DNA of 64,000 nucleotides from NCBI RefSeq assembly GCF_011045215.1, contig NZ_CP049201.1; one strand, given 5' to 3'. The notes under the pieces were generated by a model. The model saw only the letters and a list, made by a program, of their open reading frames with translations, was not told the origin of the DNA and did not search any database. Source of the DNA: Escherichia coli (GTDB taxonomy: Bacteria; Pseudomonadota; Gammaproteobacteria; Enterobacterales; Enterobacteriaceae). Position numbers and translations under genes: made by a program. Below, one piece after another: positions 39,715 to 62,699 of the stretch (position 1 is its first letter; every line of letters begins with the position of its first letter).

Positions 39715-39717
39715 AAC

Positions 39718-44620: not shown

Positions 44621-44634
44621 AAATCACCACAAAA

Positions 44635-44964: not shown

Positions 44965-44974
44965 ACGATCCCCT

Positions 44975-46457: not shown

Positions 46458-46482
46458 AAAGCCGGGAAAAATCCCGGCTTCT
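46458..46482 (-). terminator. Terminator after element ssb
   Basis: AGCCGGGA..TCCCGGCT hairpin followed by TTTTTTGTG on the minus strand, just after ssb stop. Confidence 0.5.
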
Positions 46483-46494
46483 GTCACTCGTTGC

Positions 46495-46917
46495 TTAAAA
46501 CGGTATTTCATCCCCGTACGGATCATCATTTCCCGCCTGTTGTTTTGCTCTGCTCAGTGCATCAGTAGCCTGCCCCTGTTGGCCTTTTTTGCCGCCCGGT
46601 CGCGCCGTTCTGGCACTGATTACACTGTCTGCGATAACCTGCCAGCTCTGCCGCGTTTCGCCGTTCTGGCCTGTCCACTGGCTTACCTGCATGTTACCCG
46701 CCACGCTCACCAGTTCGCCTTTGCGGTGTTTTGCCAGTGCGTCGGCCTGTCTGCCAAACGCCAGGACGGATAACCACATCGTCGCCGTTCCGTCATCTGC
46801 CTGGCTGCACGGCAGGGGAACCGCCATACTCGCCATCGCCATTTGTGTTCCCTTGCTGGTGGTCTTTAACTGCGGGTCAGCCACCAGCCGCCCGTAAGCT
46901 GCTATCTGTGCTGTCAT
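46495..46917 (-). CDS. Single-stranded DNA-binding protein (SSB-like) with acidic C-terminal tip
   Basis: 140-aa ORF; C-terminus ...NDDPYGDEIPF resembles the SSB tail ...DFDDDIPF. Confidence 0.7.
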   Translation of the reverse strand: MTAQIAAYGRLVADPQLKTTSKGTQMAMASMAVPLPCSQADDGTATMWLSVLAFGRQADALAKHRKGELVSVAGNMQVSQWTGQNGETRQSWQVIADSVISARTARPGGKKGQQGQATDALSRAKQQAGNDDPYGDEIPF

Positions 46918-47165
46918 GCTGTCTGCTCTCCGGTTTTAACGTTGATGGTTGTCACCTGTTCCGCTTCGGCAATCTCCCGCTCTGTCAGCGTGGCAAAGTT
47001 TGCCGCCGCTGTGGTCATGAATGCGCTTATCAGTTCGGGATGTGCTTTTGCGTATCCTTCTCCGGCATGGCGGTCTATTGTTCTGATTGCCACCTTTAAG
47101 GCGTGCTCTGTCATGTCTAACGCTTTATATTTTGGCGCTGTCTTATCTCTGGTTTTTTTGGTCAT
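46914..47165 (-). CDS. Hypothetical protein
   Basis: 83-aa ORF, ATGA overlap with ssb start. Confidence 0.45.
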   Translation of the reverse strand: MTKKTRDKTAPKYKALDMTEHALKVAIRTIDRHAGEGYAKAHPELISAFMTTAAANFATLTEREIAEAEQVTTINVKTGEQTA

Positions 47166-47370
47166 TTCTCACTATTCCCCACTTTTTCGCCTCACTTTTT
47201 AAGCTCCCAACATGATTTCCAACCTTGTTTTTTTGTGATTCTAATATGTTGTTTTTCAATGTGTTTTTTATTCCTCACTTTTGAGCCTATATACAGGTTG
47301 AAAAGTGAGGGGCGCGGTTGCTTTTTGTTCAGTTTCTGCTATCCCCTCACTTTTGTGCCTCACTTTTTAC
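47165..47370. repeat. Iteron array with AT-rich core (candidate replication origin of the element)
   Basis: CTCACTTTT at 47191, 47274, 47346, 47361 and inverted AAAAGTGAGG at 47301, flanking an AT-rich stretch (47225-47275), directly downstream of the helicase gene. Confidence 0.55.
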
Positions 47371-48782
47371 AGTGGGCGCACATCATCACCGTCAATAGTG
47401 ATAACGCCGTCTCTTTCCAGCTTGTACAGCCAGCGCCGAAAGTTTTTCATCTCATACCCCAGCTTTTTCATATCATCACGCAATAACGGGATAGTGCATT
47501 TATCGCCGCGCTGTGTGCGTGAACGGATACAGCCCCATAGCGCGGCGTGATTCTCCGTCTTGTTTCCGGCCTCCTCAATGCGCTCCAGTTCAACAGGTGG
47601 GCGCGGCTTATCCACTACCACCAGCGACGTGATTAACTCCTTGTCAGCGTCGATAAAAAGCTCCACCACGCGTAAATCGTATGCGGCCTCTTTCAGTTCC
47701 TCTGCGTCCTTCATTTTGGTGCAGGAGATAACCAGGGCTTCACTGTCTGCACCTTCCCGGCGAATACGGTATTCAGCGTCCAGAGATGCACGAAATGCAC
47801 TGGAACCACGCGCCCCCTTTGTTTCATCCTTGCCGGAATGGTGAACCACCAGTACCGTGGCCCCTGTGCGTCGTTTCAGTTCGTCACATCCACGGATAAA
47901 CGCCCCCATATCCCGCGCGTCATTTTCATCATTACCGCCAAAACACCGCGCCAGCGTATCCAGAATAATCATGCGTACCGGTTTACCCGTTTCCCTTTCA
48001 ACCTGGCGGGAAGCGATGACCATTTCATCAATATCAAACTGTGCTGCCGGAAAAATCGGGCGGTTTACCAGGTACAGATTTTTCACCCGTTCATCATTAA
48101 CGATTTCCCATGCTTTGATACGACGAGGGACACCAATGCCACCTTCACCGACGACATACATCACCGAACCATGCGCCACCCTGCGGCCTCCCCAGTGGCG
48201 ACCCGTGGCAACATGACACGCCCAGGAACACGCGAGGAATGATTTATAGGAACCGCTCGCGCCGTATGTGCTGCACAACGAATTAGCCGGAATCACGCCC
48301 TTAACGACATAATCAAGCTGTGTGTCGTACCCTGCAGATCCAATACTCATTGGTAGCGTGGTTTTTCGCTGGTCGTTTTTTTCTTCCTCCGGTATCTCTC
48401 CGGACCGTCTTTTCTGGCGCTCTCGTTCCAGATATTCGCGCCACCCCTCCCGCTTCTGGCTGTGCATTCCCTCAGGGTAATAATTCGCATCCCGTACACC
48501 TGCCGCTGCCAGCTTTTGCCCGATGGCATTAATATTTGACGGCTTGATGTGGCCTGCCTTGTACAGCCGGACACAATAGCGACCATCGTCGATAATTTTC
48601 AGGTCAGCCAGTTCGTCAAGATGGCTGTCTCCAAGCCATACAGGCGGAACATTGTCGCCAGCAAGTCGCCCGTCCTGCTCCTGCCATTGTTTCGCGTGCG
48701 CCCAGGCATCACTACCCGCAAAAATAATGACTTCGGTCATTTTGTCGTGCGGCTGTTTTTTTAAGTTCGGTGCCAGTTTCAT
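47367..48782 (-). CDS. Replication protein, RepA/DnaB-like P-loop helicase
   Basis: 471-aa ORF with Walker A GASGSYKS and RecA-like core; C-terminal winged-helix-like region. Confidence 0.7.
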   Translation of the reverse strand: MKLAPNLKKQPHDKMTEVIIFAGSDAWAHAKQWQEQDGRLAGDNVPPVWLGDSHLDELADLKIIDDGRYCVRLYKAGHIKPSNINAIGQKLAAAGVRDANYYPEGMHSQKREGWREYLERERQKRRSGEIPEEEKNDQRKTTLPMSIGSAGYDTQLDYVVKGVIPANSLCSTYGASGSYKSFLACSWACHVATGRHWGGRRVAHGSVMYVVGEGGIGVPRRIKAWEIVNDERVKNLYLVNRPIFPAAQFDIDEMVIASRQVERETGKPVRMIILDTLARCFGGNDENDARDMGAFIRGCDELKRRTGATVLVVHHSGKDETKGARGSSAFRASLDAEYRIRREGADSEALVISCTKMKDAEELKEAAYDLRVVELFIDADKELITSLVVVDKPRPPVELERIEEAGNKTENHAALWGCIRSRTQRGDKCTIPLLRDDMKKLGYEMKNFRRWLYKLERDGVITIDGDDVRPL

Positions 48783-49078
48783 TTTTTACCCCTGAATGCG
48801 TTAATCATGTTTTTCATTTTCTGAATGTTCGCCCGTGCCTTTGCGTTGCTGGTGGGCTGTTTGCATGGCGTGGCCTGTATCAGTGAAAAATCACGCCGGA
48901 ACTGATAAACAGGCATCACGCAGTCATAGCCGTACCCATCACGGCGGTAAGTAACGCACCGTCCCGCCACGCTTTTAATCGTTACCGTGCCGCCGTAGTT
49001 ATCCCGGAAAATATCGCCGGGGCGGATTTCAGGCCGAGCGGGGCCGCTGGCAGTAAAGCCAGAAATTTTCTGTTTCAT
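48779..49078 (-). CDS. Hypothetical protein
   Basis: 99-aa ORF, ATGA overlap with helicase start. Confidence 0.4.
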   Translation of the reverse strand: MKQKISGFTASGPARPEIRPGDIFRDNYGGTVTIKSVAGRCVTYRRDGYGYDCVMPVYQFRRDFSLIQATPCKQPTSNAKARANIQKMKNMINAFRGKK

Positions 49079-49286
49079 GGTTTTTATTCCTCTGCGCGGG
49101 TCTTGTTGTGTATTTCCATAACCGCGTTTAATTCATCAATAACCGGGGTTAACAGAGTGCTGAAAGCAGAAAATAAATCCCCCCCCCTGTTCGGCATGAA
49201 CTTCGGTTAATTTAATTAATACCGCTTTCATTTCCAGTGCCCGGTTTAATGCATTCTCAGAATGAATAAGAACATCGAAAGGGATT

Positions 49287-49520
49287 TTATCCATGGCTTA
49301 CATCCTCCGGGAATTTTCTTCTGTAACGCGCCTCTGCAACATATTCCGCATAGTCCGACGCAATATTGAGAATCTCCACACCCTCTGACCTGTAGCCACT
49401 GGTACTGATAAGAAAAAATGCGGCTTTCATCATGTCGGCAACGCATAACAACGCATCGCCTGTATGTTCCGGTGCGCCATCAAATTCCTGTTTCAGGGCA
49501 TTAAAACGATCATCACGCAT
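49287..49520 (-). CDS. Hypothetical protein (may be the 3' part of one gene frameshifted at a C9 tract)
   Basis: 77-aa ORF; begins inside poly-C/G tract 49523-49531. Confidence 0.3.
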   Translation of the reverse strand: MRDDRFNALKQEFDGAPEHTGDALLCVADMMKAAFFLISTSGYRSEGVEILNIASDYAEYVAEARYRRKFPEDVSHG

Positions 49521-49753
49521 AACCCCCCCCCATTTTCACAATCAGTAATCAGGATGGCTTTAGCCTCATTCAGTGCCATATCAGCACTAAATTGCATAAC
49601 AGCCAGTGAGTGAGGAACGAAATCCCCGGCATATTCTGTTTCGCTGGTGGCGTGCTTATGTGCCCTGTCCGCGATAACAGAAATATCAATCAGCGCGTGC
49701 ATCAGCGTTTTGATGGCTTCGGCGGCTGCGTCCTGACGGGTGTTATTGCACAT
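49493..49753 (-). CDS. Hypothetical protein (may be the 5' part of one gene frameshifted at a C9 tract)
   Basis: 86-aa ORF ending just after poly-C/G tract. Confidence 0.3.
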   Translation of the reverse strand: MCNNTRQDAAAEAIKTLMHALIDISVIADRAHKHATSETEYAGDFVPHSLAVMQFSADMALNEAKAILITDCENGGGLCVMIVLMP

Positions 49754-49949
49754 GGCGCACCTCCTGACGAATACGGGCGGCGAATACCATCACGCAGCCA
49801 TCAGGAGATTGCTGACGCGCTTCCTGTTCGTTGGTGGCCTCAATGGTAATCACGCGCGGTTGTGCCGTGCTCAGGGCGATAAAACGCCAGATGTATTTAT
49901 TCAGGTTGTGCGAGTCCCGCCCTTGCGGGTGTGTGGTATGATTTAACAT
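49743..49949 (-). CDS. Hypothetical small protein, divergent from the RHH gene
   Basis: Start taken at MLNHTTHPQ (ATG 49949, RBS GAGGTA); long upstream extension in ORF track rejected. Confidence 0.4.
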   Translation of the reverse strand: MLNHTTHPQGRDSHNLNKYIWRFIALSTAQPRVITIEATNEQEARQQSPDGCVMVFAARIRQEVRHVQ

Positions 49950-50043
49950 AGCTACCTCGATAATCTTGCTATCGTTGGTGGTTAGACGCCCTGCATGTGT
50001 ACCACCACTGCGGGGCGTTGCGTTTTTTGATGTGCACGTGTTA

Positions 50044-50088
50044 AGGTGTACACCTAACGAACCAAAACATAACGCCATAGGTGTACAC
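50044..50088. promoter_or_regulatory. Two palindromic operator-like sites GTGTACAC in a divergent promoter region
   Basis: AGGTGTACAC at 50044-50053 and 50079-50088, second abutting the RHH start codon. Confidence 0.5.
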
Positions 50089-50283
50089 ATGTCAACAGTT
50101 ATTAAGCGCGATAAAAAACAAAAAGGCACAGGAAAGGCCCCACCATTCCATATGCGTATAGTCCCTGAATTGAAGGAGCAGTTTGATAACGAAGCCAGTA
50201 ACGATGGAGTAAGTCTTGCCAACTGGCTTAAAGAGTTAGGGCGCAAAGAACTGCTACGGCGCGGAATTGAACCAAAGGGATAA
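50089..50283 (+). CDS. Ribbon-helix-helix (Arc/CopG-like) DNA-binding protein
   Basis: ORF track 49966..50283; start taken at MSTVIKRDKKQKG (ATG 50089); APPFHMRIVPELKEQFDNEASNDGVSLANWLKELGRK fits the Arc-type RHH pattern. Confidence 0.6.
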   Translation: MSTVIKRDKKQKGTGKAPPFHMRIVPELKEQFDNEASNDGVSLANWLKELGRKELLRRGIEPKG

Positions 50284-50340
50284 CTATCACTAATGTCGCA
50301 ACCAGAGGAGTTGCGACTCCGAAGATTACATAGGAAATTA

Positions 50341-50823
50341 ATGATTATGGGATTCGTCATTTTCATTGCGATCGTAATTTTATCCATTTACGTTCTTACC
50401 AAATTATTTATTTCAGAAAATTCACACGACAAAATTAGAGCCGAGGCATCCAGAAGAATTGCACAAGAAGAGGCCGAACGGGCTAAGTTGTATGAAGAGA
50501 GAAAGGAATCATCTGATAATCCTGTTAATAAACAAAAACGAATAACAACACACGAAGATCATTTTTATATGGATATTCATGGTGGTCACAAATATATATG
50601 TGTTGATGCTAAGTTAGTTTTTGAATATGCAAATTTAAAACACAACTATTTTCTTCACGCCTCTCACTATTTCCCTGAGTTAGAGTATGTTTATGGAAAA
50701 AACGAACATGGGAAAATAGTTAGAGTAGATTTGTACGATAAAAAAATTCAAGCTATTAACCCCGATACTGGCGAAAAAATACCTGGTGTGAGACGTTATC
50801 TACGACAGCACAAGATAAAATAG
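50341..50823 (+). CDS. AT-rich membrane-anchored protein of unknown function
   Basis: ORF track 50293..50823; start taken at MIMGFVIFIAIVILSIYVL (ATG 50341, RBS AGGAAA); single N-terminal TM helix; markedly lower GC than neighbours. Confidence 0.5.
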   Translation: MIMGFVIFIAIVILSIYVLTKLFISENSHDKIRAEASRRIAQEEAERAKLYEERKESSDNPVNKQKRITTHEDHFYMDIHGGHKYICVDAKLVFEYANLKHNYFLHASHYFPELEYVYGKNEHGKIVRVDLYDKKIQAINPDTGEKIPGVRRYLRQHKIK

Positions 50824-51238
50824 CCCACCGGAATTTTTTTCCGGTTACGCTTTGCCCACCAGCCGCAAATGTGGCATTGTTGGCTATGCTCATGCGTTGG
50901 GGATAACGCGCAATTAGTGTTGAAGGGCCACCGTAGCGGGTGGCCTTTGTTTTGCCTGTTATCCGGCAATTGTGGCGCTTCGCCACACGGTTGATATAAT
51001 CCTCCTGCACAGATTCATTTTTTGCGCAGCAGGTTAATTGTTCGCAAGGGCGCTCCGGCAACTGGGCGCTTTTTGTTTTTACCCACCAGCACAATAAAAA
51101 TCTTCATTTTCCATTTTTGCAAAATTTCATGCTTTCCGGACGACTGGCCATATGTCATTTTTTAGCAGAAGATTTTGCCTTGCTGGTGGGTAGCTTCCCG
51201 GTTAACACGATGTACCGTATAATCAGCACCGCACGCGG

Positions 51239-51820
51239 TTACTGAATACGCTCACCAAAGTAAAACTCAGGCTGATATTCACGTATCAGCCTTTTTTCTT
51301 CTTCCTCCAGCTCACGCTTTTTGCGCTTACATGCCTGTAGTTCCCTCCCCTTCTCGCTGGCACTTATCTGGTATTGCTCTTTGCGACGGGAAAAATCCTG
51401 TAATGCGCCCCACGGGATACCATAAGCCCCCGTTTTTCTGATACCCGGTATCACATTTCTGAATACCCAGTTACTGAAACGATGGGCGAACGTGCCAGGA
51501 GTAGCAGCTTTTCGACTTCTGGCAATCAGCTTGTAAAAACCAGATTCAGAAACGACGCTATGATTTGGATTTCCGCGAATACCGTAAGTTAAAGTTACGG
51601 TATTACTTTCATCATCATCCAGAGCTTGCAACGCCATGCGTGAATTAGTCAGTTCCAGCGCAGCGCAGACATCCTTTGCAACAAACCACGGATCGCCGTT
51701 CAGATACACCACGCGAACGTTCACACTATCAAAGCGCAGAACGACCAGATCACGAATATCACAGAATTTTTTCACTGGACGTGCGTCACCCTTGCCAGTC
51801 ACGGCAATATTTTTATTCAT
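51239..51820 (-). CDS. Bro-N domain protein (antirepressor-like)
   Basis: DIRDLVVLRFDSVNVRVVYLNGDPWFVAKDVCAALEL...GFYKLI..S....A..F..WV fits Bro-N. Confidence 0.7.
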   Translation of the reverse strand: MNKNIAVTGKGDARPVKKFCDIRDLVVLRFDSVNVRVVYLNGDPWFVAKDVCAALELTNSRMALQALDDDESNTVTLTYGIRGNPNHSVVSESGFYKLIARSRKAATPGTFAHRFSNWVFRNVIPGIRKTGAYGIPWGALQDFSRRKEQYQISASEKGRELQACKRKKRELEEEEKRLIREYQPEFYFGERIQ

Positions 51821-51870
51821 CGCTTTTTACCTCACATACAAAAAACCCCGCATTGCGCGGGGTATATCAA

Positions 51871-52080
51871 TCATTGACGATATTCATTAGCTTGTTTTCG
51901 TTGTCTTTCCAGCCACGATGCAACATCATCACGATGCCATGCGTTGCGTCGCCCAATCTTAAAGGGGCGTGGAAATTTATTTTTTTCATCATTCATGAAA
52001 GCGTAAAATGCACTCATTGCACCGTAGCGAAGCTCTGCCATCACGTCTTTGGTAAATAGAATATTGCCGTTAGTGCTCAT
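51871..52080 (-). CDS. AlpA-family regulator / excisionase-like protein
   Basis: 69-aa ORF immediately downstream of integrase, HTH-like core. Confidence 0.65.
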   Translation of the reverse strand: MSTNGNILFTKDVMAELRYGAMSAFYAFMNDEKNKFPRPFKIGRRNAWHRDDVASWLERQRKQANEYRQ

Positions 52081-52086
52081 ATTGCC

Positions 52087-53319
52087 TCACATATTCACTA
52101 CTTTTAGCCCCTGATGACCACCAGAACGACGGATAATTCCCTTTCTGGCATCATCAACAAAATCACCAATCCATTGCATCATGATCTTACGTTGCTCAAA
52201 ATATTTTGAGCGATTATAAATATCACGAATAGCATCGCCGCTTTTATGGGCTAATGCTGCCTCAATAACATCTGGGTTAAACCCTTCTTCGTTGAGTAAC
52301 GTACTCCACATAGCCCGGAATCCGTGGGCAGTTGCAATACCATAAAATTGTCCATCTTTGAAACACTTATGACGCAACACGCTTGATATAGCTTTCCCCG
52401 GATTCTTTGGAGAAAAAAATATATAGCTACCACATTTTATTTTATTCATTTCATTTAAAATATCCACGGCTTGCCGTGAAAGCGGAACTACGTGTTCACG
52501 TCCACACTTCATTCTTTCAGGGGGAATTGTCCAGATACAATTTTCTAAATCAATTTCCTCCCATTTTGCCTCCCTTGCTTCACATGGTCGTACCATAGTG
52601 AAAATCTGGAACAAAAGAGAGCATCTTATAGAGATATTACTTGTAGTATCCCACCAGTTCAAAAATTCTGATAACAGTTCAACTGGTAATGCCTTTAATG
52701 GGGTATGTTTTTTTGTTGCAAATGCATTTCTTATTGTTGATAGCGGGTTATTTTTAATTACTCCAGAGTTAACACAGTAATTCATTATTTCATTAATTTT
52801 TGAAATAATTTTATCCAATACAGAATTACGATCAGAAAATTGATTAAGCAATGGTATGACCACAGGCGCGGTCATATCATGTATGTACACATTTCCAAAT
52901 ACAGGGATTATATGTCTGTTCAATAACTCTTCTATTGTCTGTAAAGTCGACAGTCGCAAATCACCTTTTTTCTTAAAATTAAACCATTCAATTGCAATAG
53001 CACCAAACGTCTGTAAGTGCTTTCTTTTAGCCTCGAGTCGTTTTTCTGCCCGGTATGATAACGGATCTATATCCCGTGCCAACAATCTGCGCAGATTATC
53101 GCGTTCTTCTCTGGCTTCAACCAGCGTGAAATCGGGGTATCGCCCTATAGTGTATGTTTGCCGCTTCTTCGTAAAAGGTTGTACATAACGAAAACGCCAC
53201 GATTTACTACCGGCTTTTGACACATAAAGCAAAAGCCCAAACCCATCATATAGAGCGTAATCTTTCTCTCGTGGCCTGGCGCTTTTTACCTCTGATGCAG
53301 TAAGAGGCTTCACCGACAT
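52087..53319 (-). CDS. Tyrosine recombinase, P4-type integrase
   Basis: ORF track 52087..53418; start taken at MSVKPLTASEVKSARPREKDYALYDGFGLLLYVSKAGSKSWRFRY (ATG 53319); C-terminal catalytic region with HGFR and Y. Confidence 0.85.
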   Translation of the reverse strand: MSVKPLTASEVKSARPREKDYALYDGFGLLLYVSKAGSKSWRFRYVQPFTKKRQTYTIGRYPDFTLVEAREERDNLRRLLARDIDPLSYRAEKRLEAKRKHLQTFGAIAIEWFNFKKKGDLRLSTLQTIEELLNRHIIPVFGNVYIHDMTAPVVIPLLNQFSDRNSVLDKIISKINEIMNYCVNSGVIKNNPLSTIRNAFATKKHTPLKALPVELLSEFLNWWDTTSNISIRCSLLFQIFTMVRPCEAREAKWEEIDLENCIWTIPPERMKCGREHVVPLSRQAVDILNEMNKIKCGSYIFFSPKNPGKAISSVLRHKCFKDGQFYGIATAHGFRAMWSTLLNEEGFNPDVIEAALAHKSGDAIRDIYNRSKYFEQRKIMMQWIGDFVDDARKGIIRRSGGHQGLKVVNM

Positions 53320-53492
53320 ACAAGCACTCCAATACAAATTTTTTCTAGTCCATGCGCTGGTTCCTTTTGCCAGAATACTGGCGATAAAAAAGCGAAAAAC
53401 AAGGAACAATGCACACAATGAAAAAACCGCAACTTATTGAATAAGAAGAAAAACAAAAAGAAACGGTAACGAAAGATAATGATTGCATAGTC

Positions 53493-53501
53493 CAAAAGAG
53501 A
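53493..53501. repeat. Right copy of 9-bp direct repeat CAAAAGAGA (putative att core)
   Basis: Identical to 42340-42348; about 170 bp from the integrase start. Confidence 0.5.
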
Positions 53502-53898
53502 CACGGAAAACGATGTAGTCGTCCAGCAGTCGGTCGAAGGTATCCACCTCAGCATCAATAAAAACCGCCGGATCAACGTTATCCAGCCCGAACGTGGCTC
53601 CATCAATCCAGTCAGATAAATCCATTGCCAGACAGCGGGCAAATATCTGCGGTTTTGGCACGTTTTCCGTCTTTCCGGCCCGATCAGTCACCACAAACAG
53701 ATCGCATTTCAGCGTGACCCGTGTCTGCCCGTCGGCAAACTGAGCCTTGTCCCAGCCGGGTACATCCACAAACACGGCAGGCGTCACCAGTTGCGTCACT
53801 TTTTCCGGGTACTCATCGGCATCTTCCACCCAGGGAATTTGTTTCAGACTGTCAATCACTGCCTGATGCCAGGTTCCCATCATCAATGGTTCCATCAT
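53501..53898 (-). pseudogene. 5' fragment of the split tail-completion gene
   Basis: ORF 53434..53898 reads a coherent protein to ...DDYIVFRVSF then a hydrophobic nonsense tail (GLCNHYLSLPFLFVFLLIQ) encoded by element sequence; frame at the junction matches the fragment at 42179..42339. Confidence 0.55.
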
Positions 53899-54617
53899 TC
53901 CATCCCCTTAAATACCCGGAATTTCAGTTCATGCTCAAAATTTTTCAGGATCAGTGCTTCCGCATCAGGGAAAACAAAATCCTCTATACGGTTCAGCATG
54001 GCTTCATAAATATCAATTTCCGCTTCGCGCACCCTTCGTCGTCCGGATGCCTGCCGGACCAGTACCGTCTTACGTCGTGAAATGCGTCCGCGCCGGTTTT
54101 CAGACTCAAACTCATTAACAAAAGCCTCGTCACCTGACCAGGTGGTGACCGGTATTGCCTCCCCGGCGGGCTTAAAACGTATCTCCGGCGCTTTCCTGCG
54201 ACGGGAAGCCGGTGCAAAACGCCCCCGTTCATCACGCAGCTGATGGCGTTCACCGCGTCGCCCCCCACTGATGCGTCCGCGCAGATCACGCACTTTGATG
54301 GCGTTCAGGCCGAACCACACCTTTACCTCATCAAACTCATCGCCATTTCGACGAATGATAAAAGCATTCAGGACACGTTTTTTGATCATTTTCTGGCTGC
54401 GTGGCGCAACCTGTTTTTTAAACTCTGCCATGGCCTTCATCCGCAGTGCGGACGCGGCTCTTTTCAGCGCCACGCCCCAGGCTTTACGGATCTGGCTTTT
54501 TGAACCACCCAGTTTAGCGATAATTTTCAGCACATCATCCTCGTCAATATCGACGACGAGGTTTCGTGCCAGCCGTCGCTGCCGGACAGTGCTTCGTTCA
54601 TGCTCTCTGACTGTCAT
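53895..54617 (-). CDS. Putative head-tail joining / virion morphogenesis protein
   Basis: ORF track 53895..54677; start taken at MTVREHERSTVRQ (ATG 54617); between FII-like and tail-completion genes; family not recognised. Confidence 0.45.
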   Translation of the reverse strand: MTVREHERSTVRQRRLARNLVVDIDEDDVLKIIAKLGGSKSQIRKAWGVALKRAASALRMKAMAEFKKQVAPRSQKMIKKRVLNAFIIRRNGDEFDEVKVWFGLNAIKVRDLRGRISGGRRGERHQLRDERGRFAPASRRRKAPEIRFKPAGEAIPVTTWSGDEAFVNEFESENRRGRISRRKTVLVRQASGRRRVREAEIDIYEAMLNRIEDFVFPDAEALILKNFEHELKFRVFKGME

Positions 54618-55005
54618 AACGTTTACTCGGTCGGACAGGGGCGGCGGGTGTACTTCTTCCGGGTTCTCCCCGCGCAAGAGTAATGGTAATCACACCATGA
54701 CCCGCAGTGCCTGACTCATCCCAGCCAGGATCGACCACCTGGTAGGGTTCGCCGTGGATCATGACCCTGTCATATTTTTTCAGTCCGGCAACCCATGCGC
54801 TCCGGGTAAATAACACCGGTGCAGTATCACGAATTTCGCCGCTGCCAGTGTTCATCCCGGTGTTATCTGCCGGGGCATCAAAAACAGCACGGATTTTTCT
54901 TTCCGTGCCGCCCGGATATATGCTGATTTCCGTCCCCATCGTATCCAGGATGATGTCATCCGCATCACTCATGGCCTGATCGAACAGATTATCGGACATC
55001 ATCAC
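54598..55005 (-). CDS. Head-tail joining protein (lambda FII-like)
   Basis: 135-aa ORF; NLFDQAMSDADDIILDTMG resembles recalled lambda FII N-terminus; ATGA overlap with FI. Confidence 0.65.
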   Translation of the reverse strand: MMMSDNLFDQAMSDADDIILDTMGTEISIYPGGTERKIRAVFDAPADNTGMNTGSGEIRDTAPVLFTRSAWVAGLKKYDRVMIHGEPYQVVDPGWDESGTAGHGVITITLARGEPGRSTPAAPVRPSKRYDSQRA

Positions 55006-55388
55006 TCCCGGATTTTTTCTGCCAGACCATCCGCCAGCAACGCAGGAACTGTGGCTTCATTAACCAGCACAACACTGGAGGCCCGGGCGAACATCAACAT
55101 TTTGCCCGTCACCGCATCACGGGACGGCATATGTGCCGTTTTCAGCATGCGCACCCGAACGAGTCCCCGCTCAGAATACACCTCATTACGGGCATCCCCT
55201 CCGGATGCATCACGCTGTTCATCATGCACATCATCCTGTTCTGTCCCTTCCCCATCGAATCCGGCGGCCTCCTCTTCCCATTCCGCCAGGCGCTGTTCAA
55301 GATCGGCTTTTGAACCTGAAATATCTGCTTCACGCCCCAGAATCTCTGCCAGCTCCTGCAGGCGTTCAGTCATCTGCTCTTTTGTCAT
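55002..55388 (-). CDS. DNA packaging protein (lambda FI-like)
   Basis: ORF track 55002..55520; start taken at MTKEQMTERLQELAEILGREADISGSK (ATG 55386-55388); resembles recalled lambda FI. Confidence 0.65.
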   Translation of the reverse strand: MTKEQMTERLQELAEILGREADISGSKADLEQRLAEWEEEAAGFDGEGTEQDDVHDEQRDASGGDARNEVYSERGLVRVRMLKTAHMPSRDAVTGKMLMFARASSVVLVNEATVPALLADGLAEKIRE

Positions 55389-55438
55389 CACATTTCTCCC
55401 GTGCGATAAAGAAAAAGGCGGGAATATCCCGCCTGACC

Positions 55439-56467
55439 TTATTTCACCTGAACCACCACAAACGCGTCCGGATCCGGCAACACCATCAACGGCGCAGACT
55501 GCGTCATGGTATATTCGCACCCCGGGTCCCCCACCTCTAACCAGTGTTTCGGATAACGAATTGCAGAGGTGATCCCTTCACTCAGCGCCTGGTTATCCTG
55601 GATTGCGCCATAACAACGGACACCCTCCACCTGAGTGTTTCCAAGAATCAGTGTGCCTTCCGGCAGATAACGCTGCTCATCCCCGTTTTCATCAACATAC
55701 GTTGTTTTCGCCACCATGATGGCCAGATCACCGTAATAACCTTTAAAAGAAACCACGGAACCCAGATCTTTCAGCGCGGTTTCCAGTTCAGATTTTGAGC
55801 CACGGCGGGTATCCAGTTTTTCACGAAACAGCTTAAAACCGTTCAGCATACGCCAGACAGTACCGTCCATAATCGCAATATTGATGGTACCGGAAGCAAA
55901 ATCGCAGTACGCATCCAGATCATGCGTCGGATCAAAGGTGTCAGCATTCTGTTTTGACCATTCGCGTCCCCCTGCCTGCGTTATGTTATTGGCGGCAGAA
56001 CGTCCAAAATCCACTTCCACCGTCTCAAACTGTTCACCGCTCATGGTGTACTTACCCTGCAGAACAGCGCTGACCGCCTGCATTTCTTCCACCTGCACAA
56101 TCGCCTGCTCTTCCTGTTTCAGGTTATCAGTCAGAATACGCAGGCGACGGTAGGCCGGGTCATTAAGACGGGCCGGATCTTCCCCCGGAAGACGCTCCAC
56201 CGCCTGCTGATAATCCAGCCGGTGTTTTGGTTTAACATAGCCGGGGCGTAACACGCGGGTTTCACCACCACGACTGCGCAGTACCTTACCTGACACAACC
56301 GGAGACACATATGCCGCAACCGGTGTTTTTCCGGTGATTTTATCCAGCATCACTTCCTGAGTATGGAAAGTGACCGTACGACGAAAAAACAGCTCCAGAA
56401 ACAGCGCACGGAATTTCACTTTCTGCTCGGTGTAGCCGAGCAACTGACGCGTGGTAAATAACCCCAT
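55439..56467 (-). CDS. Major capsid protein (lambda gpE-like)
   Basis: ORF track 55439..56506; start taken at MGLFTTRQLLG (ATG 56467, RBS GGAAAG); long stretches match recalled lambda E (PIVSG.V.RSRGG, PGYVKPKH, VEEMQAVSAVL.GKYTM.GE.F, KLDTRRGS.SELETA.KDLG). Confidence 0.9.
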   Translation of the reverse strand: MGLFTTRQLLGYTEQKVKFRALFLELFFRRTVTFHTQEVMLDKITGKTPVAAYVSPVVSGKVLRSRGGETRVLRPGYVKPKHRLDYQQAVERLPGEDPARLNDPAYRRLRILTDNLKQEEQAIVQVEEMQAVSAVLQGKYTMSGEQFETVEVDFGRSAANNITQAGGREWSKQNADTFDPTHDLDAYCDFASGTINIAIMDGTVWRMLNGFKLFREKLDTRRGSKSELETALKDLGSVVSFKGYYGDLAIMVAKTTYVDENGDEQRYLPEGTLILGNTQVEGVRCYGAIQDNQALSEGITSAIRYPKHWLEVGDPGCEYTMTQSAPLMVLPDPDAFVVVQVK

Positions 56468-56537
56468 AATTGACTTTCCTTTAAAAACACAAACGAACCG
56501 CATCACGACCCGTTTTTTTCAGTTAATCACTTCACCA

Positions 56538-56873
56538 TCAGGCGTGGCTGATGGCACTTCCCACAAACGCGTTGGCTTTTTTCACCGCATCCACCGAATC
56601 CGGCCAGACCAGCGATTCGGTGGCAAACGTACCGCTTTTGTAGTACGTCAGTGTGGGCTCGGTCCCGGCCAGCGCCAGTGCCAGTACCCCCACAGCCGTT
56701 CCGGCTTTCTGACCATCCCATGCCACCAGTTTTCCGCTGGCGTCATCCAGCATCAGTGGCGTCAGTGAAGGCGTGGCAACACTGATACCGCTGGTACCTG
56801 TTGCGGTATACACCGGATCGCTTCCGGCAAAAATGCGCCCGTCCGCACGCTTTTCTGTGGTGGTTTTAATCAT
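56538..56873 (-). CDS. Head decoration protein (lambda gpD-like)
   Basis: ORF track 56538..56903; start taken at MIKTTTEKRADG (ATG 56873); TPLMLDDASGKLVAWDG...YYKSGTF...WPD matches recalled lambda D. Confidence 0.85.
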   Translation of the reverse strand: MIKTTTEKRADGRIFAGSDPVYTATGTSGISVATPSLTPLMLDDASGKLVAWDGQKAGTAVGVLALALAGTEPTLTYYKSGTFATESLVWPDSVDAVKKANAFVGSAISHA

Positions 56874-56913
56874 TTTCTCAGTCTCCTGATTTATCTGAAT
56901 CACGGATCCCCGC

Positions 56914-58395
56914 TTACGGCATACTCATCAGCAGTTCTTCTTCCCCGTTCCCGGCAGTTCCGCCACCGGAAACGGCACTGGCGGCATGCTGTGCCATGAA
57001 GCGCTCAAAAAGTGTTACCTGTGACGGTTGCGATACTGATGGCGCAGCTGCCAGCAGTGTTTTCGCCTGGTCCACTGTCATTCCCGGCTGTTCAGCCAGC
57101 GCCTGTGCCAGTTTTTCGCGTCCTTTTGCTTCCGGAAGTGCCATTATCTGCTCGCCGGTACTTGCCGCACCGGTTGCCGGTGCCGCTGCCAGTAACATTT
57201 TCGCCTGTTCCACCGTCATTCCCGGCTGTTCAGCCAGCGTCCGTGCCAGTTGTTCACGCCCTTTTGCTTCCGGAAGTGCCACAATCTGATCGCCAGTACT
57301 GTCAGTACCGGCAACCGGTGCCGCTGCCAGTAACGTTTTCGCCTGCTCAACTGACATTCCCTGCTGACCTGCCAGCATCTGCGCCAGTTTTTCGCGTCCT
57401 TTCGCCTCCTGACAATTCAGGATCCCCATCACGCGCTGATTTTCCTGGGACACCGCTTCAGCAACGGTGAGATTTTTTGTTGTCATCGTATTCTCCTGTG
57501 TAACAGAGTCGTTCAGAGCAGAAACCATTACATCAACGGCATCTGCAGCATTAATCAGTTGATCAGCCAGGCCTGTATCAATGCCTGCCTGACCGTCATA
57601 AACGGCAGCCTCGGTATTCATCACCACCTCTGAACTCAGCCCCGTATAAAGTGCCACCTTGTCGACAAACATCCGGCGGGCCTCATCAATACGGCGCTGA
57701 AAATCCGCACGCACACCTGTCGGCAACGCCTGAATACTGTTGCCGTCAACCTTGTGCTGCCCGGAGTAAATCAGCGTGATATCCACCCCTTCCTGTGCCA
57801 GTTGTTTCTCATAACTGATGTGCGCCATCATCACACCAATCGAACCAATTTTTGCCGTCTGCGTGACCAGCCGACGCGTACAGGCTGCCGCCAGCAACAT
57901 GGCGGCTGAACAGGCCATGTCATTACACAGCGCCCACACGGGCTTCTGTTCCCGCAGACGGTAAATCATGTCAGCACAGTCAAACGCCCCGGCAGCCTGA
58001 CCGCCAGGACTGTCGATATCCAGCAAAATACCGCGCACATCCGGATCATTCACCGCCAGCTGAAGACGGGCGGTAAGACCGTCATAGCCTGTCATGCCAG
58101 AGTAAGGCCTCAGGGTACCCATTTTATGTACCAGCGTGCCGCTCACCGGCAGAATGGCGATGCCATTTTTCACCTGATAGCATTTTTCAGGACGCCGGCC
58201 ACCAGACATATAGTCCGCCACCGCCAGTTGCATACCGTCGGCATCAAGCTGAACATCCAGTTGCGGAACGGAAAGACTGCCCGCCCCCATCTCCTTACCC
58301 AGCGCGCAAAAGAAAACCCGCGCATAGGCGGGTTCCAGTAAAAGCGGTTCATTAAATGCCATGGCGGCAATATGCGATAAATTACGACGCATCAC
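56914..58395 (-). CDS. Head maturation protease / scaffold (lambda gpC-like, S49 peptidase) with triplicated C-terminal repeat
   Basis: N-terminus ...NLSHIAAMAFNEPLLLEPAYARVFFCAL matches recalled lambda C; C-terminal region has three tandem copies of an ~46-aa unit. Confidence 0.85.
   Translation of the reverse strand: MMRRNLSHIAAMAFNEPLLLEPAYARVFFCALGKEMGAGSLSVPQLDVQLDADGMQLAVADYMSGGRRPEKCYQVKNGIAILPVSGTLVHKMGTLRPYSGMTGYDGLTARLQLAVNDPDVRGILLDIDSPGGQAAGAFDCADMIYRLREQKPVWALCNDMACSAAMLLAAACTRRLVTQTAKIGSIGVMMAHISYEKQLAQEGVDITLIYSGQHKVDGNSIQALPTGVRADFQRRIDEARRMFVDKVALYTGLSSEVVMNTEAAVYDGQAGIDTGLADQLINAADAVDVMVSALNDSVTQENTMTTKNLTVAEAVSQENQRVMGILNCQEAKGREKLAQMLAGQQGMSVEQAKTLLAAAPVAGTDSTGDQIVALPEAKGREQLARTLAEQPGMTVEQAKMLLAAAPATGAASTGEQIMALPEAKGREKLAQALAEQPGMTVDQAKTLLAAAPSVSQPSQVTLFERFMAQHAASAVSGGGTAGNGEEELLMSMP
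57040..57406. repeat. Tandem repeat, about 138 bp x 2.7, inside the gpC-like gene
   Basis: Protein units EAKGRE(K/Q)LA..LA.Q.GM(S/T)V(E/D)QAK.LLAAAP...STG.QI.ALP repeated; DNA motif ...GTGCCAGTTTTTCGCG..TTTTGCTTCCGGAAGTGCCA recurs at about 138-bp period. Confidence 0.7.
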
Positions 58396-59953
58396 CTTTT
58401 TCTCCCGTTGTCTGACGGATCTGCTGCTGAAACGCGTCCTTTATCCAGACCGGACGCGGAAGACCGGCAGCCTGTCGCTCCTGAGTTTCCCGTAGCTGCT
58501 GGCGGAAAATCTCCTGATAGTCATCCCCCATCAGGGCCAGCTCTTTCTCGTATGTACTCAGGCCGCCTTCAATGCGCATCACCGCTTCCTGCACTTCCTT
58601 AAGGCCATCAATCGCCATACGACCGGCACCAATCCACTCGGCACGGCACCACCCGGAACGGGCCTCCCAGAATGAGAAACGGGATTTCGGCGGACGGATC
58701 ACACCACGAATAAGGGCTTCCTCCAGCCAGCAGGCAAACATCTGTGACGCCAGGCGACTGGCCACAAATTTTCGTTTTCCCATAAAATACCGCCACGACT
58801 CATTGGCGGATGCCCTGGCACTGGAATAACTGACCTGTGAATAATCACGGGAAAGCTGCTCATAGGACACGCCCAGTCCGGCAGCTATGTAACGTAACAG
58901 CGCCTTTTCCAGTTCAGAAAAACCATTATCCGCATTCTGGGCTGTCTGCAGATTCAGTGAATCTCCCGGGTAAAGATGCGGAATACGGACCCCGCCCAGT
59001 TTTACCGTATTGGTGGCGTAATAACGCGCGTAGCCTTTCATGATGGTGTTCAGGGGATTTTTACCTCCATCTCCCACTCCGGCGATATATTCAAACGCTT
59101 TTTCCGAATCCAGTGTGGATTCAATCGTCGCGGCGTACATCGCCCGCACCACCGCCGACTGCAGTTGCGTGGCCTGCAGTGTGTCGAGCATCTTGAGACG
59201 CTCCATGACGGAATAAAACTGGTTGGCCCCGCGCGTCTGCCCGTCTTCCTGTGGCTGAAACACATGGATCATTCCCGGTCTCCCGGAAGGCAGTGTTGCC
59301 GTAATTCGTGTCCATTTACTGACACCGTAGCCGGGCCAGCCATCATCCTGAACATGGTAGGCCAGCGCTTTTCCGTGTCGGTTTATTTCCACCCCGGCAC
59401 GCATAAAACGATCGCCGGTACCATAACCGGGTGTACTGACACGCTTCGGGCTGATGGTTTTGAATTTCGTCCGGAATAATGACGTGGATTCCGCATCCCA
59501 TACGGGCTGGACAAAAATTTCACCGTTAAACGTATGGACCCCCACCCCTTCACGAATGAATTCGGTAAACGAACGACGTCCTTCCACATCCATCGTACCA
59601 AACACCGGATCGCAGTATTCCATCCACGCAGCCTCAACATCTTCAATAAAAGCATGTGAATCTGCTTCCGACATCCCCAGCCAGCGCCAGTTGGGACGGT
59701 AACTCAGACGAAACATGTGCCCGACAATATGATCCTTATGAATTTCCACTGCATTCGATGCAATACCGTTGTTACGGACCAGATCATCCGCGCGGGCGTT
59801 ACCCAGATGAATGGAAGGTAAGAGCGCCACGTCGGCACTTTCCGGTGCAGGCAGCCATTCTGCCATTTGCCCACCGAACCCGGAACCACCACCAGAATAT
59901 CCCATGCTTTGCCGTAAAGGCTGCCCATGAATATCCACCAGTTCCCCGTTCAC
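58382..59953 (-). CDS. Portal protein (lambda gpB-like)
   Basis: 523-aa ORF; GGGSGFGGQ, LPGDSLNLQTAQ.DNG, LLRYIAAGLGVSYEQLSR, GRMAIDGLKEVQEAVM match recalled lambda B. Confidence 0.9.
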   Translation of the reverse strand: MNGELVDIHGQPLRQSMGYSGGGSGFGGQMAEWLPAPESADVALLPSIHLGNARADDLVRNNGIASNAVEIHKDHIVGHMFRLSYRPNWRWLGMSEADSHAFIEDVEAAWMEYCDPVFGTMDVEGRRSFTEFIREGVGVHTFNGEIFVQPVWDAESTSLFRTKFKTISPKRVSTPGYGTGDRFMRAGVEINRHGKALAYHVQDDGWPGYGVSKWTRITATLPSGRPGMIHVFQPQEDGQTRGANQFYSVMERLKMLDTLQATQLQSAVVRAMYAATIESTLDSEKAFEYIAGVGDGGKNPLNTIMKGYARYYATNTVKLGGVRIPHLYPGDSLNLQTAQNADNGFSELEKALLRYIAAGLGVSYEQLSRDYSQVSYSSARASANESWRYFMGKRKFVASRLASQMFACWLEEALIRGVIRPPKSRFSFWEARSGWCRAEWIGAGRMAIDGLKEVQEAVMRIEGGLSTYEKELALMGDDYQEIFRQQLRETQERQAAGLPRPVWIKDAFQQQIRQTTGEKGDAS

Positions 59954-60159
59954 AGCCCCACTCCTGCCGGGCCACGACGCCGTCCGGATACACCCAGCGC
60001 ACTTTCCAGCTCTTCAATATACTGACGCAGTTCACCAATCGTCGCACGCGAATACTGAACCTGCCGTCCGTTCCTGCCGACAGAAACCACAGCACGCCCG
60101 ATCATCAGTTCATGTAATGCCCGACGCGCCTCGCAAAGCATTTCATGCGTATAAACCAT
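59950..60159 (-). CDS. Head-tail connector (lambda gpW-like)
   Basis: 69-aa ORF; ARRALHELMIGRAVVSV..GRQVQYSRATIGELRQYIEELE...RRRGPAG resembles recalled lambda W. Confidence 0.8.
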   Translation of the reverse strand: MVYTHEMLCEARRALHELMIGRAVVSVGRNGRQVQYSRATIGELRQYIEELESALGVSGRRRGPAGVGL

Positions 60160-60162
60160 CCT

Positions 60163-62079
60163 TTATCCTCCACTCAGTGCAGCCGCGATCTCTTCCATGC
60201 TCATATCATCCTCATCCTGCTCATCTCTTCGTGCCCTCGCCAGCGCTTCAAGGTCCAGTTGCCACCGCTGTACCGAAACGCGCAGGGCGGCATAAGCATA
60301 TACCAGGCAGTCGAGGGCTTCGTTGCGTCGCCCTTTTTTATCCCACAGCAGTTTCACCCTGCCGTTAACCACCTTTTCCACCAGTTCTTCCGCTACGATT
60401 TGACGCGCCTCTTCTTCCGAAAAAATGTCCGGGTTATCCGGAAAACGGAAGGTATACGGGGCTGCTTCACTTGCAGAAACCACCGGCAGGGCAAAACGCG
60501 CATACAGCATTTCCTTGACGGTATCGGAGCCCACCTCACACAAAAACACACCACGCTGGTTGCGCTTTTTGGGCATGGTGATCACCGGCTTGCCATACAC
60601 CGATGCCCCTTTTATGGGAAGCACAAAAAAAGTGCCGTGTTTCCTGGAACGCTGATACACAATGTCCTGGTCGATACCACCGGTATCCCAGCAGACGCGG
60701 GAAATGGAAATTTCAGTACCGTCAGCATGGCGGTATTTTTTCCGGATCACCGCATCAACACGTTTAAGGGTGTCCTCGTCCTCCGGTCGCCCCATGATAA
60801 TTTGCTTGTCAATCAGAAAGGCTTCTTCGCCGGGAGCCCAGCCCCAGACATAAATTTCATAGCGATCTTTCTGGGAGTCGATCCCGGCAGTCAGGTAAAC
60901 CACCCGCAGGGGAACCTGCGCATCATAGTGGCAGACTTTTTCCAGCAACAACTCAAAGCTCAGTTTTTCTGCCACGGCCTCTTCATAGGGCTCCCCGAGC
61001 GTGGTGTTAATAAACGTCTTGACACCGTTCGGATCCTTCAGCGCATCCAGCCAGTCATAAACAATCTGTACCCAGGTGGTGAACGGACTGTACGCTGTCC
61101 ACACGTGGTACGTGATTGAGCGCGGTGGCGGCATCTCCTCATCACCGGCGCTGTAAAATGCCAGGCCGTCACGCGTCCACATCCCGGTATTGTCACAAAT
61201 CCAGCGCCCGTCGGTCTGGTCAAGCTCCGACTGCCGGATCACACAGCCATTATGTTCACACAGGTAATACACCGTTTCCGGTTTACCCTTCTCCCATTTC
61301 AGGCCAAAGGTTGTCGCATCATCGCCAAACTTAAGATACTGGGCTTCACCACAATGAGGGCATGGCACATAAAACCGCATAAAATGTGCAGATTCGTTCG
61401 CGGCTTTTTCAATCTGACAGGAACCTTTAATTTTTGGCGTTGAGCCGCGTATGGATTTAGGCCATACCGAACCTTCGATACGTTTATCGCCAAGCAGCGT
61501 TGGCGAGCCTTCCTTTTCCACATCCGGTTCAAACGAGGAGAGTTCGTCATAGCAGACCACATCCACTGATTTTTCACGGTAGTTTTTAGCAGCGGCACCC
61601 CCCAGGCACCAGAACCCCACGCCGGAGGAGAAACGCTTCAGGGTGAGTGTGTTGTCACGATGTTTTCTGCCCAGCCATGGCGATAACGCTTTAAGGCTGG
61701 GGACATCCCGGAGCGTTGCTTCCACATGCGCTTTCATAAAATCTTCAGCTGCGGAATCTGTCGGCTGGAAGAGCAGGCTGTTACGGGATTTATGCTCAAT
61801 AAAATACCCGACCACGCCCAGCAGCATTTTGGTGTAACCCACACGCGCCGATTTAATCAGATTAACAGTGCGGATCCTGTCGTGCCCCATGCTGTTCATA
61901 ATGGCGACCTGGAACGGCAGTGTTTTCCATTCCCCATCACCGTATGACGATTCTTTAGGCAGATAATAATTTTGATCAGCCCATTCAACTGCCGTCATCG
62001 GTACAACCCTGACCAGAGGCTGCAGCGCAACTGAAACAGCAGCCATCATATTATTCAGCTGTAGTTCGGATATATTCAT
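60163..62079 (-). CDS. Terminase large subunit (lambda gpA-like)
   Basis: ORF track 60163..62115; start taken at MNISELQ (ATG 62079); extensive match to recalled lambda A (TAVEWAD.NYYLPKES, KRIEGSVWPKSIRGSTPK, WTAYSPFTTWVQIV). Confidence 0.95.
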   Translation of the reverse strand: MNISELQLNNMMAAVSVALQPLVRVVPMTAVEWADQNYYLPKESSYGDGEWKTLPFQVAIMNSMGHDRIRTVNLIKSARVGYTKMLLGVVGYFIEHKSRNSLLFQPTDSAAEDFMKAHVEATLRDVPSLKALSPWLGRKHRDNTLTLKRFSSGVGFWCLGGAAAKNYREKSVDVVCYDELSSFEPDVEKEGSPTLLGDKRIEGSVWPKSIRGSTPKIKGSCQIEKAANESAHFMRFYVPCPHCGEAQYLKFGDDATTFGLKWEKGKPETVYYLCEHNGCVIRQSELDQTDGRWICDNTGMWTRDGLAFYSAGDEEMPPPRSITYHVWTAYSPFTTWVQIVYDWLDALKDPNGVKTFINTTLGEPYEEAVAEKLSFELLLEKVCHYDAQVPLRVVYLTAGIDSQKDRYEIYVWGWAPGEEAFLIDKQIIMGRPEDEDTLKRVDAVIRKKYRHADGTEISISRVCWDTGGIDQDIVYQRSRKHGTFFVLPIKGASVYGKPVITMPKKRNQRGVFLCEVGSDTVKEMLYARFALPVVSASEAAPYTFRFPDNPDIFSEEEARQIVAEELVEKVVNGRVKLLWDKKGRRNEALDCLVYAYAALRVSVQRWQLDLEALARARRDEQDEDDMSMEEIAAALSGG

Positions 62080-62560
62080 CGAGTAACTCCGGCAATTTAT
62101 CCCCTGTCCGCGCACACTGATTCGCGCCTTTTGCGATAAGGGTTTTCAGATAATCGATATGACGCGGGGTTAAATCCGGGAACTGTCGCTGCATGGATAA
62201 AGGAATGGAATCAAGCGTACTGGACAATGCCATCGCCAGTTTGCTGAGAGCGAAAACGCAGAACCCAGAATCAATGAGCTTGCCTTCGGTTACCTGATTT
62301 TTTAATTGCTGTGCTATTGCCTGTTCTTCAGTCAATTTCCATCTGGCGATAAGTAATTTTTCTTCGTAATCGCTATTTCCATCGTCATCAGTATCGCTTC
62401 TTCCTTTGCGTTTAAGGTATGAAATATAAAAATATCGCCAGGCATCAATATCGTATTCACCACGCTTTCGATTTTTTGGCGCTCCCGGGTGCTTCTGAAG
62501 ATCCCGCAACCAGCGTTCAGTTATACCAAGATGCTCGGCTACCTCCGCCTGCGTTGCCAT
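62051..62560 (-). CDS. Terminase small subunit (Nu1-like, prophage copy)
   Basis: 169-aa ORF upstream of terL; C-terminal half similar to the element TerS; N-terminal domain distinct. Confidence 0.8.
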   Translation of the reverse strand: MATQAEVAEHLGITERWLRDLQKHPGAPKNRKRGEYDIDAWRYFYISYLKRKGRSDTDDDGNSDYEEKLLIARWKLTEEQAIAQQLKNQVTEGKLIDSGFCVFALSKLAMALSSTLDSIPLSMQRQFPDLTPRHIDYLKTLIAKGANQCARTGDKLPELLDEYIRTTAE

Positions 62561-62699
62561 ACACCCTCTTTAGCTGTTCACTTTACACTCAACTCCGTTT
62601 TTGCCGCTATTTTCCCACAAACTGGTCGGACTTCCGGTTTTCTTGATAACTAAAAACAATATAATCAATTGGTTAGATAATTAAAAAACCGGAAGTGGA

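Follow-up and report, generated by a model that had tools for sequence, protein, structure and literature searches.

The window analyzed here, a stretch of 64,000 nucleotides of Escherichia coli DNA, carries on its minus strand the head genes of a prophage. By PHROG assignment, these genes run in the order terminase small and large subunits, W-like adaptor, portal, protease-scaffold, decoration, major capsid, FI, and FII, and the same head-gene order is annotated in lambda, in phage 21, and in E. coli relatives. The major capsid protein of the prophage (55439-56467) is lambda-E-like. The prophage adjoins the trp operon, whose trpED genes reach 98.9% identity to E. coli genomes. We concluded that this is a head module of the lambda/phage 21 type, in a prophage of E. 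coli. The features of the protease-scaffold gene are as follows (positions are those of the window).

56914..58392, minus strand: gpC / phage-21 gp5-like prohead protease-scaffold gene, 492 aa plus stop
57520..57954, minus strand: Peptidase_S49 (SppA/ClpP-like) catalytic domain, aa 147-291 (Pfam PF01343, E 7.1e-33)
57493..57497, minus strand: Shine-Dalgarno sequence AGGAG (ctctgttacacAGGAGaatacgATG), 6 nt upstream of an internal ATG
56914..57486, minus strand: predicted nested in-frame scaffold ORF, 190 aa, with the start MTTKNLTV, like lambda Nu3 / phage 21 gp6
57292..57429, minus strand: repeat unit 1, aa 322-367, MGILNCQEAKGREKLAQMLAGQQGMSVEQAKTLLAAAP plus linker VAGTDSTG
57154..57291, minus strand: repeat unit 2, aa 368-413, DQIVALPEAKGREQLARTLAEQPGMTVEQAKMLLAAAP plus linker ATGAASTG
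57016..57153, minus strand: repeat unit 3, aa 414-459, EQIMALPEAKGREKLAQALAEQPGMTVDQAKTLLAAAP, then SVSQPSQV, the first 8 residues of the unique tail
56917..57015, minus strand: conserved C-terminal tail TLFERFMAQH...EELLMSMP, common to the protease and the scaffold product

The likely start of the protease gene is the ATG at 58392; the listed ORF reaches a GTG one codon upstream, at 58395. The 492-aa protein is identical to the E. coli S49 family peptidase WP_164475802.1 / QIF13974.1, which is encoded on a 5.41-Mb contig, and it matches PHROG 53, head maturation protease, with an E-value of 1e-201. Among solved structures, the SppA proteins 3RST (aa 77-289) and 4KWB match the protease part (E 2e-17). 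The initial annotation had called the gene a gpC-like protease/scaffold gene, and this identity was borne out by the Peptidase_S49 match together with the position of the gene between the portal gene and the decoration and capsid genes.

The C-terminal part of the gene contains an array of three in-frame tandem units of 138 nt, or 46 aa, each (57016-57429, minus strand). Tandem Repeats Finder reported positions 57060-57409 with a period of 138, 2.5 copies, 83% matches, and a score of 490, and a second repeat search placed 138-nt copies at 57041-57178, 57179-57316, and 57317-57454, with exact 138-nt spacing. Since the period equals 46 codons, the reading frame is kept across the array. A hidden Markov model of the unit gave three domain matches in the ORF, at E-values of 4e-22, 5e-21, and 1e-21, far beyond chance. 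These searches agree with the initial annotation in its coordinates, its unit length, and its count of three tandem copies. In the protein register, the three units share 62-73% nucleotide identity and 61-70% amino acid identity with each other; their 38-aa cores are conserved and their 8-aa linkers are variable. A core motif (E8, A9, G11, A16, L19, A20, A30, L34, and A36) is near-invariant in every copy, and the Nu3-type unit pattern I-x-x-x-x-EA-x-G-x-E-x-x-A-x-x-LA...A-x-x-x-L-x-A, with the C-terminal tail, is present in the window ORF. Before repeat unit 1 lies a conserved helix, EAVSQENQRV, and in the tail, residues F160, M164, and P190 are invariant in the homologue alignment. Two plus-strand ORFs over the array (56996-57289 and 57012-57470) were rejected as repeat by-products, with no support as genes.

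A second start site lies within the same frame. In phage 21, the position aligned with the internal ATG at 57486 is where gene 6 is annotated to begin. The combination of AGGAG and ATG is kept at the aligned position in six genes, namely, those of the window, three four-copy relatives, phage 21, and lambda. The nested products predicted from these starts are 190 aa long in the window, 236 aa in the four-copy relatives, 200 aa in phage 21, and 131 aa in lambda. The annotations of phage 21 and lambda place gene 6 inside gene 5 and nu3 inside C, in the same reading frame. The nested ORF of the window has matches in three stretches to each of two further families, PHROG 8399 (head scaffolding protein) and PHROG 8940 (capsid assembly protein). 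Because the array lies inside the frame of the conserved nested start, the repeats would be common to the protease and the predicted Nu3-like scaffold. The initial annotation had proposed that the repeats overlap the nested scaffold region and that the expansion could alter scaffold length. The conservation of the internal start site upholds the first proposal at the sequence level, and the predicted length of 190 aa, against 131 aa from the equivalent start in lambda, upholds the second.

Three units are what phage 21 also carries. Two separate records, M81255 and OL657228, show its gp5 (501 aa) with three units. In GenBank M81255, repeat_regions in gene 6 are labeled "Tri1 box," "Tri box," and "Tri3 box" and annotated "function unknown." We take this record to be that of Smith & Feiss, Gene 1993. 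The triple unit is therefore already known: such "Tri box" repeats are an ordinary part of the head protease/scaffold gene of the phage 21 type, and the triplication is no unusual expansion, because it is the normal, annotated state of the phage 21 lineage. Genes 5 and 6 of phage 21 resemble the window gene in their position between portal and decoration genes, in their S49 domain, in the nested scaffold start at the aligned position, and in having three tandem units followed by a ...F-x-x-FM...LMxMP tail. The nucleotide identity between the two is ~73% over 70% of the length. They differ in the state of the units: those of phage 21 are old and diverged and are spaced ~47-50 aa apart, whereas units 2 and 3 of the window are recent copies with an exact 46-aa period. 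The units also do not correspond one to one. Unit 1 alone is orthologous, at 82% identity to its phage 21 counterpart. The other two window units, 2 and 3, show 53-61% identity to every phage 21 unit and are closer to each other. The architecture of the window gene is that of phage 21, but with the distal units replaced or homogenized.

The unit is single copy in lambda gpC (NC_001416, residues 362-399), as the initial annotation had stated. Lambda gpC/gpNu3 shares with the window gene the nesting of protease and scaffold, the internal ATG preceded by a Shine-Dalgarno sequence, and the C-terminal tail, but it has one unit (ENSRIMGILNCEEAHGRE...LAAAP) rather than three, and a long Ser/Thr/Ala/Gln-rich stretch precedes that unit. 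Window unit 1 is 61% identical to the lambda unit. By sequence, unit 1 corresponds to the one unit of lambda and to Tri1 of phage 21.

The comparison with gpC/Nu3 homologues that had been proposed with the initial annotation was made on 124 full-length sequences, comprising homologues and reference sequences. These contained from one to six units: one unit in 1 sequence (lambda), two in 15, three in 63, four in 42, five in 2, and six in 1. Three units was thus the commonest state (63/124), and none of the 124 full-length sequences counted was without a unit. Copy number also varied within 90%-identity clusters, whose members carry two, three, or four units. One such cluster, P0092, has 196 members, including 492-aa members on contigs of up to 291 kb. 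Three-copy alleles that are 96% identical to the window protein were found in many draft assemblies, and the cluster that holds them also has a 446-aa two-copy allele that differs from a three-copy one by exactly one unit over the C-terminal region compared. Cronobacter contributed a further three-copy allele (P0104).

The window's own allele was also compared with complete E. coli genomes. The three closest translated E. coli relatives encode proteins of 538 aa with four units, at ~94% nucleotide identity, and all of the 18-19 closest complete E. coli genomes have four copies. No end-to-end match to the three-copy array was found among 5,426 complete E. coli genomes, so the window allele is rare or possibly misassembled.

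To place the unit in a wider setting, we searched a unit profile against 1.84 billion cluster representatives (E-value of 1e-3 or better) and obtained 1,408 matching proteins, each representing a 50%-identity cluster. A single unit was present in 136 of the 150 best of these 1,408 matches. In the same best 150, the unit lay either near the C-terminal end of proteins of ~420-550 aa, which is the size of protease-scaffold fusions, or in proteins of ~100-220 aa. Multicopy arrays are therefore a lineage-specific elaboration, mainly of enterobacterial phage-21-like phages.

The units have not all evolved alike. Within the lineage of phage 21 and its Salmonella relatives, units at the same position are 71-81% identical across proteins, compared with 50-59% between units of one protein; the triplication in that lineage is therefore old, with each unit conserved in place. 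In the window lineage, units 2 and 3 are 85% identical, the distal units of four-copy alleles are 84-92% identical, and no phage 21 unit is closer than another to these distal units. The high identity among these distal units indicates recent turnover. The distal units thus seem to have been duplicated, deleted, and homogenized by unequal recombination, and the first unit is the conserved ancestral one. Because the closest complete genomes all carry four copies, the array behaves as a variable-number repeat remodeled by unequal recombination.

The relation of the three-copy array to the four-copy one can be followed unit by unit. The four-copy E. coli prophage alleles (e.g., WP_050939995.1, 538 aa) have ~94% nucleotide identity to the window gene outside the array and an identical internal start region. 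Their units 1 and 4 match window units 1 and 3 at 95-96%, and they have one extra internal unit: their units 2 and 3 share 90% identity, and the middle unit of the window resembles both. In a comparison with one four-copy relative (L001), window unit 2 had 96% and 94% nucleotide identity to units 2 and 3, respectively, and window unit 3 had 95% identity to unit 4. Fifteen sites separate L001 units 2 and 3; window unit 2 matches one of them at 8 of these sites and the other at 7, in an interleaved pattern. Because this pattern lacks a single switch point, we rejected one unequal crossover joining units 2 and 3 of a four-copy allele as the sole origin of the window's middle unit. Another three-copy allele, probably from P0092, looks like a single-crossover hybrid at the protein level. 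The interleaved middle unit of the window could be an unduplicated unit close to the ancestral form, a product of gene conversion, or a consensus left by collapse.

The last of these options would mean that the strain truly has four copies and that the assembly merged two internal units, ~90% identical, into a single consensus. A consensus of collapsed reads could yield the 8-versus-7 mosaic of unit 2, the exact protein is recorded from one contig only, and the closest complete genomes, as noted above, are all four-copy, with none aligning end to end with a three-copy array. In addition, 27 of 62 short or partial database entries stop inside the array, and two entries differ by exactly one unit over the C-terminal regions compared. 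The warning in the initial annotation that tandem 138-bp repeats invite assembly collapse or expansion was thus reasonable. However, three-copy alleles occur in many independent assemblies, both in the P0092 cluster and in Cronobacter, and phage 21 has three units in each of its two records. In the window itself, the frame is intact and the array lies on a 5.41-Mb chromosome. A unit 2 that resembles the precursor of a later duplication would show this interleaving just as readily; its distance to L001 unit 2 or unit 3 is 4-6%, equal to the 5.4% divergence of the rest of the gene. We consider a four-to-three collapse unlikely.

We used AlphaFold to model the unit and the scaffold. A single-unit model, built with a 62-sequence unit alignment, gave a compact helix-turn-helix module for the 38-aa core (pLDDT 91.3), with a short N-terminal segment, helices at residues 13-21 and 27-36, and a tight turn at the conserved P-G-M-T. 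For the 190-aa scaffold as a whole, pTM was 0.30, the linkers fell below pLDDT 50, and there was no fixed arrangement between units. If these models are right, the scaffold would resemble beads on a string, with mini-domains joined by disordered Ala/Gly/Ser/Thr linkers. A Foldseek search of the PDB with the whole 190-aa model returned no match (best E 2.9), as expected from its pTM of 0.30. A sequence search of the PDB with the scaffold likewise returned no match, and no solved structure there matches the unit; a profile search of the PDB found de novo designed tandem-repeat proteins only, which we took as compositional similarity rather than homology. Pfam gave no credible family over the repeats, and its hits to T2SSK, HTH_15, and Peptidase_C23 in the repeat region (E 0.3-7) were dismissed as noise. 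We know of no lambda-type scaffold with a solved structure. The scaffolds of P22 (gp8) and of 80alpha/SaPI1 have single-copy, C-terminal helix-loop-helix domains that bind the coat protein. Like the modeled unit, these domains are small two-helix modules near the C-terminal end of a flexible scaffold, but they have no detectable sequence or structural similarity to it, and the likeness is one of analogy only.

Taken together, we consider it highly probable that the array represents the repeats of a nested prohead protease/scaffold gene of the phage 21 type, which corresponds to lambda C/Nu3 and to phage 21 genes 5/6. One reading frame would give two products, a 492-aa S49 serine protease and, from the internal Shine-Dalgarno sequence and ATG, a 190-aa scaffold, which would share a C-terminal part consisting of the three 46-residue units and the conserved tail. 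Each 38-residue core would form a helix-turn-helix mini-domain of its own, with a flexible 8-residue linker after it. In two-hybrid assays, lambda Nu3 interacts with E, with C, and with itself, and according to earlier evidence, it is required for incorporation of B into the procapsid (PMC3224144). From these published contacts with E, C, B, and Nu3 itself, we infer that the units, the C-terminal tail, or both may be docking or self-association modules. The units might dock the scaffold and the protease inside the assembling capsid shell, on each other, or both, and extra copies might then raise valency and reach and leave capsid geometry unchanged. Phage 21, with three units, and lambda, with one, build similar heads, as judged from lambda-21 hybrid phages. 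It could instead be that the conserved C-terminal tail, rather than the units, is the real capsid-binding element, and extra copies may make no functional difference, since lambda works with a single unit.

A docking role for every unit has to be weighed against a neutral length polymorphism, in which the extra units are a tolerated spacer in a largely disordered scaffold and unit 1 and the tail alone matter. Since one unit is enough for lambda to function, this rival is a serious one. Homologues carry one to six copies, and the head modules of lambda, phage 21, and the window all have a lambda-E-type capsid protein; unit 1 is conserved and the distal units are reshuffled; and the whole-scaffold model has no fixed arrangement of units. 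The title of Medina et al. 2011 also describes lambda Nu3 as intrinsically disordered. Several observations point the other way. In phage 21 and Salmonella, units 2 and 3 are position specific (71-72% identity across proteins, compared with 50-59% within), which suggests purifying selection; the core motif, unlike the linkers, is near-invariant in every copy; and each full-length homologue sampled had a unit. On balance, we regard the neutral spacer as possible but somewhat doubtful.

The prophage is itself interrupted. Between its neck genes and its P2-like tail genes lies an element of ~10 kb, at ~42.6-53.4 kb of the window, that matches a mobile element in many E. coli genomes. Its genes encode an integrase, a Bro-N anti-repressor, a repressor, a RepA-type helicase/primase, and an SSB, as well as a second lambda-E-like capsid protein (46% identical to that of the prophage), a decoration protein, and a second small terminase subunit. 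Phage-inducible chromosomal islands (PICIs) of the EcCICFT073 type encode a capsid protein and a head decoration protein (PMC6092414). The ~10-kb element fits a PICI of this type nested in the prophage. We found no direct att repeats of >10 nt flanking it. An ORF of the element at 44195-44620 encodes a Nu3-like protein of 141 aa that lacks the protease part but carries two diverged units as well as the conserved tail; this protein is 36% identical to the prophage scaffold (E 4e-12). The same nested PICI arrangement is found in E. coli SA53-3, in which the S49 gene has four units.

A more far-reaching view would be that the unit is a docking module for the capsid protein and that its copy number, 2-6 among alleles that are >90% identical, works as a rapidly evolving dial of valency under pressure from competing PICI satellites. 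The scaffolds of 80alpha and SaPI1 compete for capsid subunits. Were the idea true, helper and satellite scaffolds would compete for capsid subunits here as well, and gain or loss of repeats would be an escape route. We consider it highly improbable.

As a discovery, the repeat array of the window carries little weight, since it is the standard, GenBank-annotated architecture of phage 21 and an exact RefSeq protein. Annotators should expect copy-number errors and fragmented gene calls at the array in short-read assemblies. The unit is nonetheless a widespread module, with 1,408 cluster representatives and no Pfam family, and makes a clean target for studying the recruitment of lambda-type scaffolds and proteases into procapsids. 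The natural alleles with one to six units provide a ready series for asking whether scaffold valency matters.

The prophage is a hybrid, in which a head and packaging module of the lambda/phage 21 type is joined to a contractile tail module (regions compared, window 29,800-42,400 versus 53,400-62,600). The tail module contains genes for baseplate V, J-like, I-like, fibre, fibre assembly, sheath, tube, tape measure, and gpD-like proteins, and we take it to resemble P2 in gene content and order. In other Escherichia coli strains (L001 and L002), head modules nearly identical to that in the window are instead attached to different tail genes. These genes are annotated as "phage tail protein" and "phage minor tail U family protein", annotations from which we read the tail as lambda-type and noncontractile. 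The prophage end nearest trp carries an anti-repressor gene; directly upstream, and overlapping the gene start, are Rfam matches to c4-a1b1, isrK, and C4 antisense RNA (window 28,972-29,788, + strand). We read this arrangement as a P1/P7-type C4-ant immunity module.

Between the prophage neck genes and baseplate gene V lies a PICI-like satellite of ~10 kb, of the EcCICFT073 type (window ~42,600-53,420, - strand), with the following features.

Features of the PICI-like satellite (window coordinates)
52087-53418, - strand, integrase
51239-51820, - strand, Bro-N anti-repressor
49743-50387, - strand, repressor
47367-48782, - strand, RepA helicase/primase
46495-46917, - strand, SSB
44975-46030, - strand, second lambda-E-like capsid protein (46% identity to the prophage capsid protein)
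44635-44964, - strand, decoration protein
44195-44620, - strand, Nu3-like protein (141 aa, protease-less)
43311-43895, - strand, second small terminase subunit

No att repeats longer than 10 nt were found for the satellite. Its core (42,617-51,077) was found as a stand-alone element in many E. coli genomes. In E. coli SA53-3, the satellite is nested in a related prophage as it is in the window, and the head-PICI-tail arrangement is the same. The SA53-3 locus (L007) also has genes annotated as a subtilase family AB5 toxin binding subunit and an S8 family peptidase (35,720-36,698), which adjoin the lysis genes on the far side and resemble the cytotoxin gene pair subAB. The window stops short of the corresponding region.

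At least one end lay within the repeat array of the S49 gene for 27 of its 62 short or partial database entries (P0001 to P0062). All the source-named entries in this set are titled "S49 family peptidase, partial", and the contigs that bear the entries were as short as 314-662 nt. Among E. coli genomes with at least one gpC-like gene, the median number of copies was 2, with as many as 7. Since partial entries end in the array and genomes carry multiple gpC-like copies, we conclude that the tandem repeat and prophage paralogy likely both break short-read assemblies at the S49 gene.

The RefSeq start of lambda nu3 (position 5132, giving 201 aa; 2633-3238 in the lambda locus, NC_001416) differs from the start that aligns with phage 21 gene 6. 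The latter, an SD-preceded in-frame ATG at codon 309 of lambda C, gives 131 aa and also aligns with the internal start in the window. A protein library representative (P0243) is likewise 131 aa long, with the repeat unit at residues 55-92.

The Nu3-like protein of the PICI has two diverged copies of the repeat unit of the prophage scaffold and keeps the conserved C-terminal tail (FLFEAYMEKHSP...KLLLSVK). The two proteins share 36% identity across 137 aa (E, 4e-12). The PHROG match of the PICI protein, PHROG 1999, is listed as "unknown function". The PICI protein may be a satellite scaffold that partners the PICI capsid protein.
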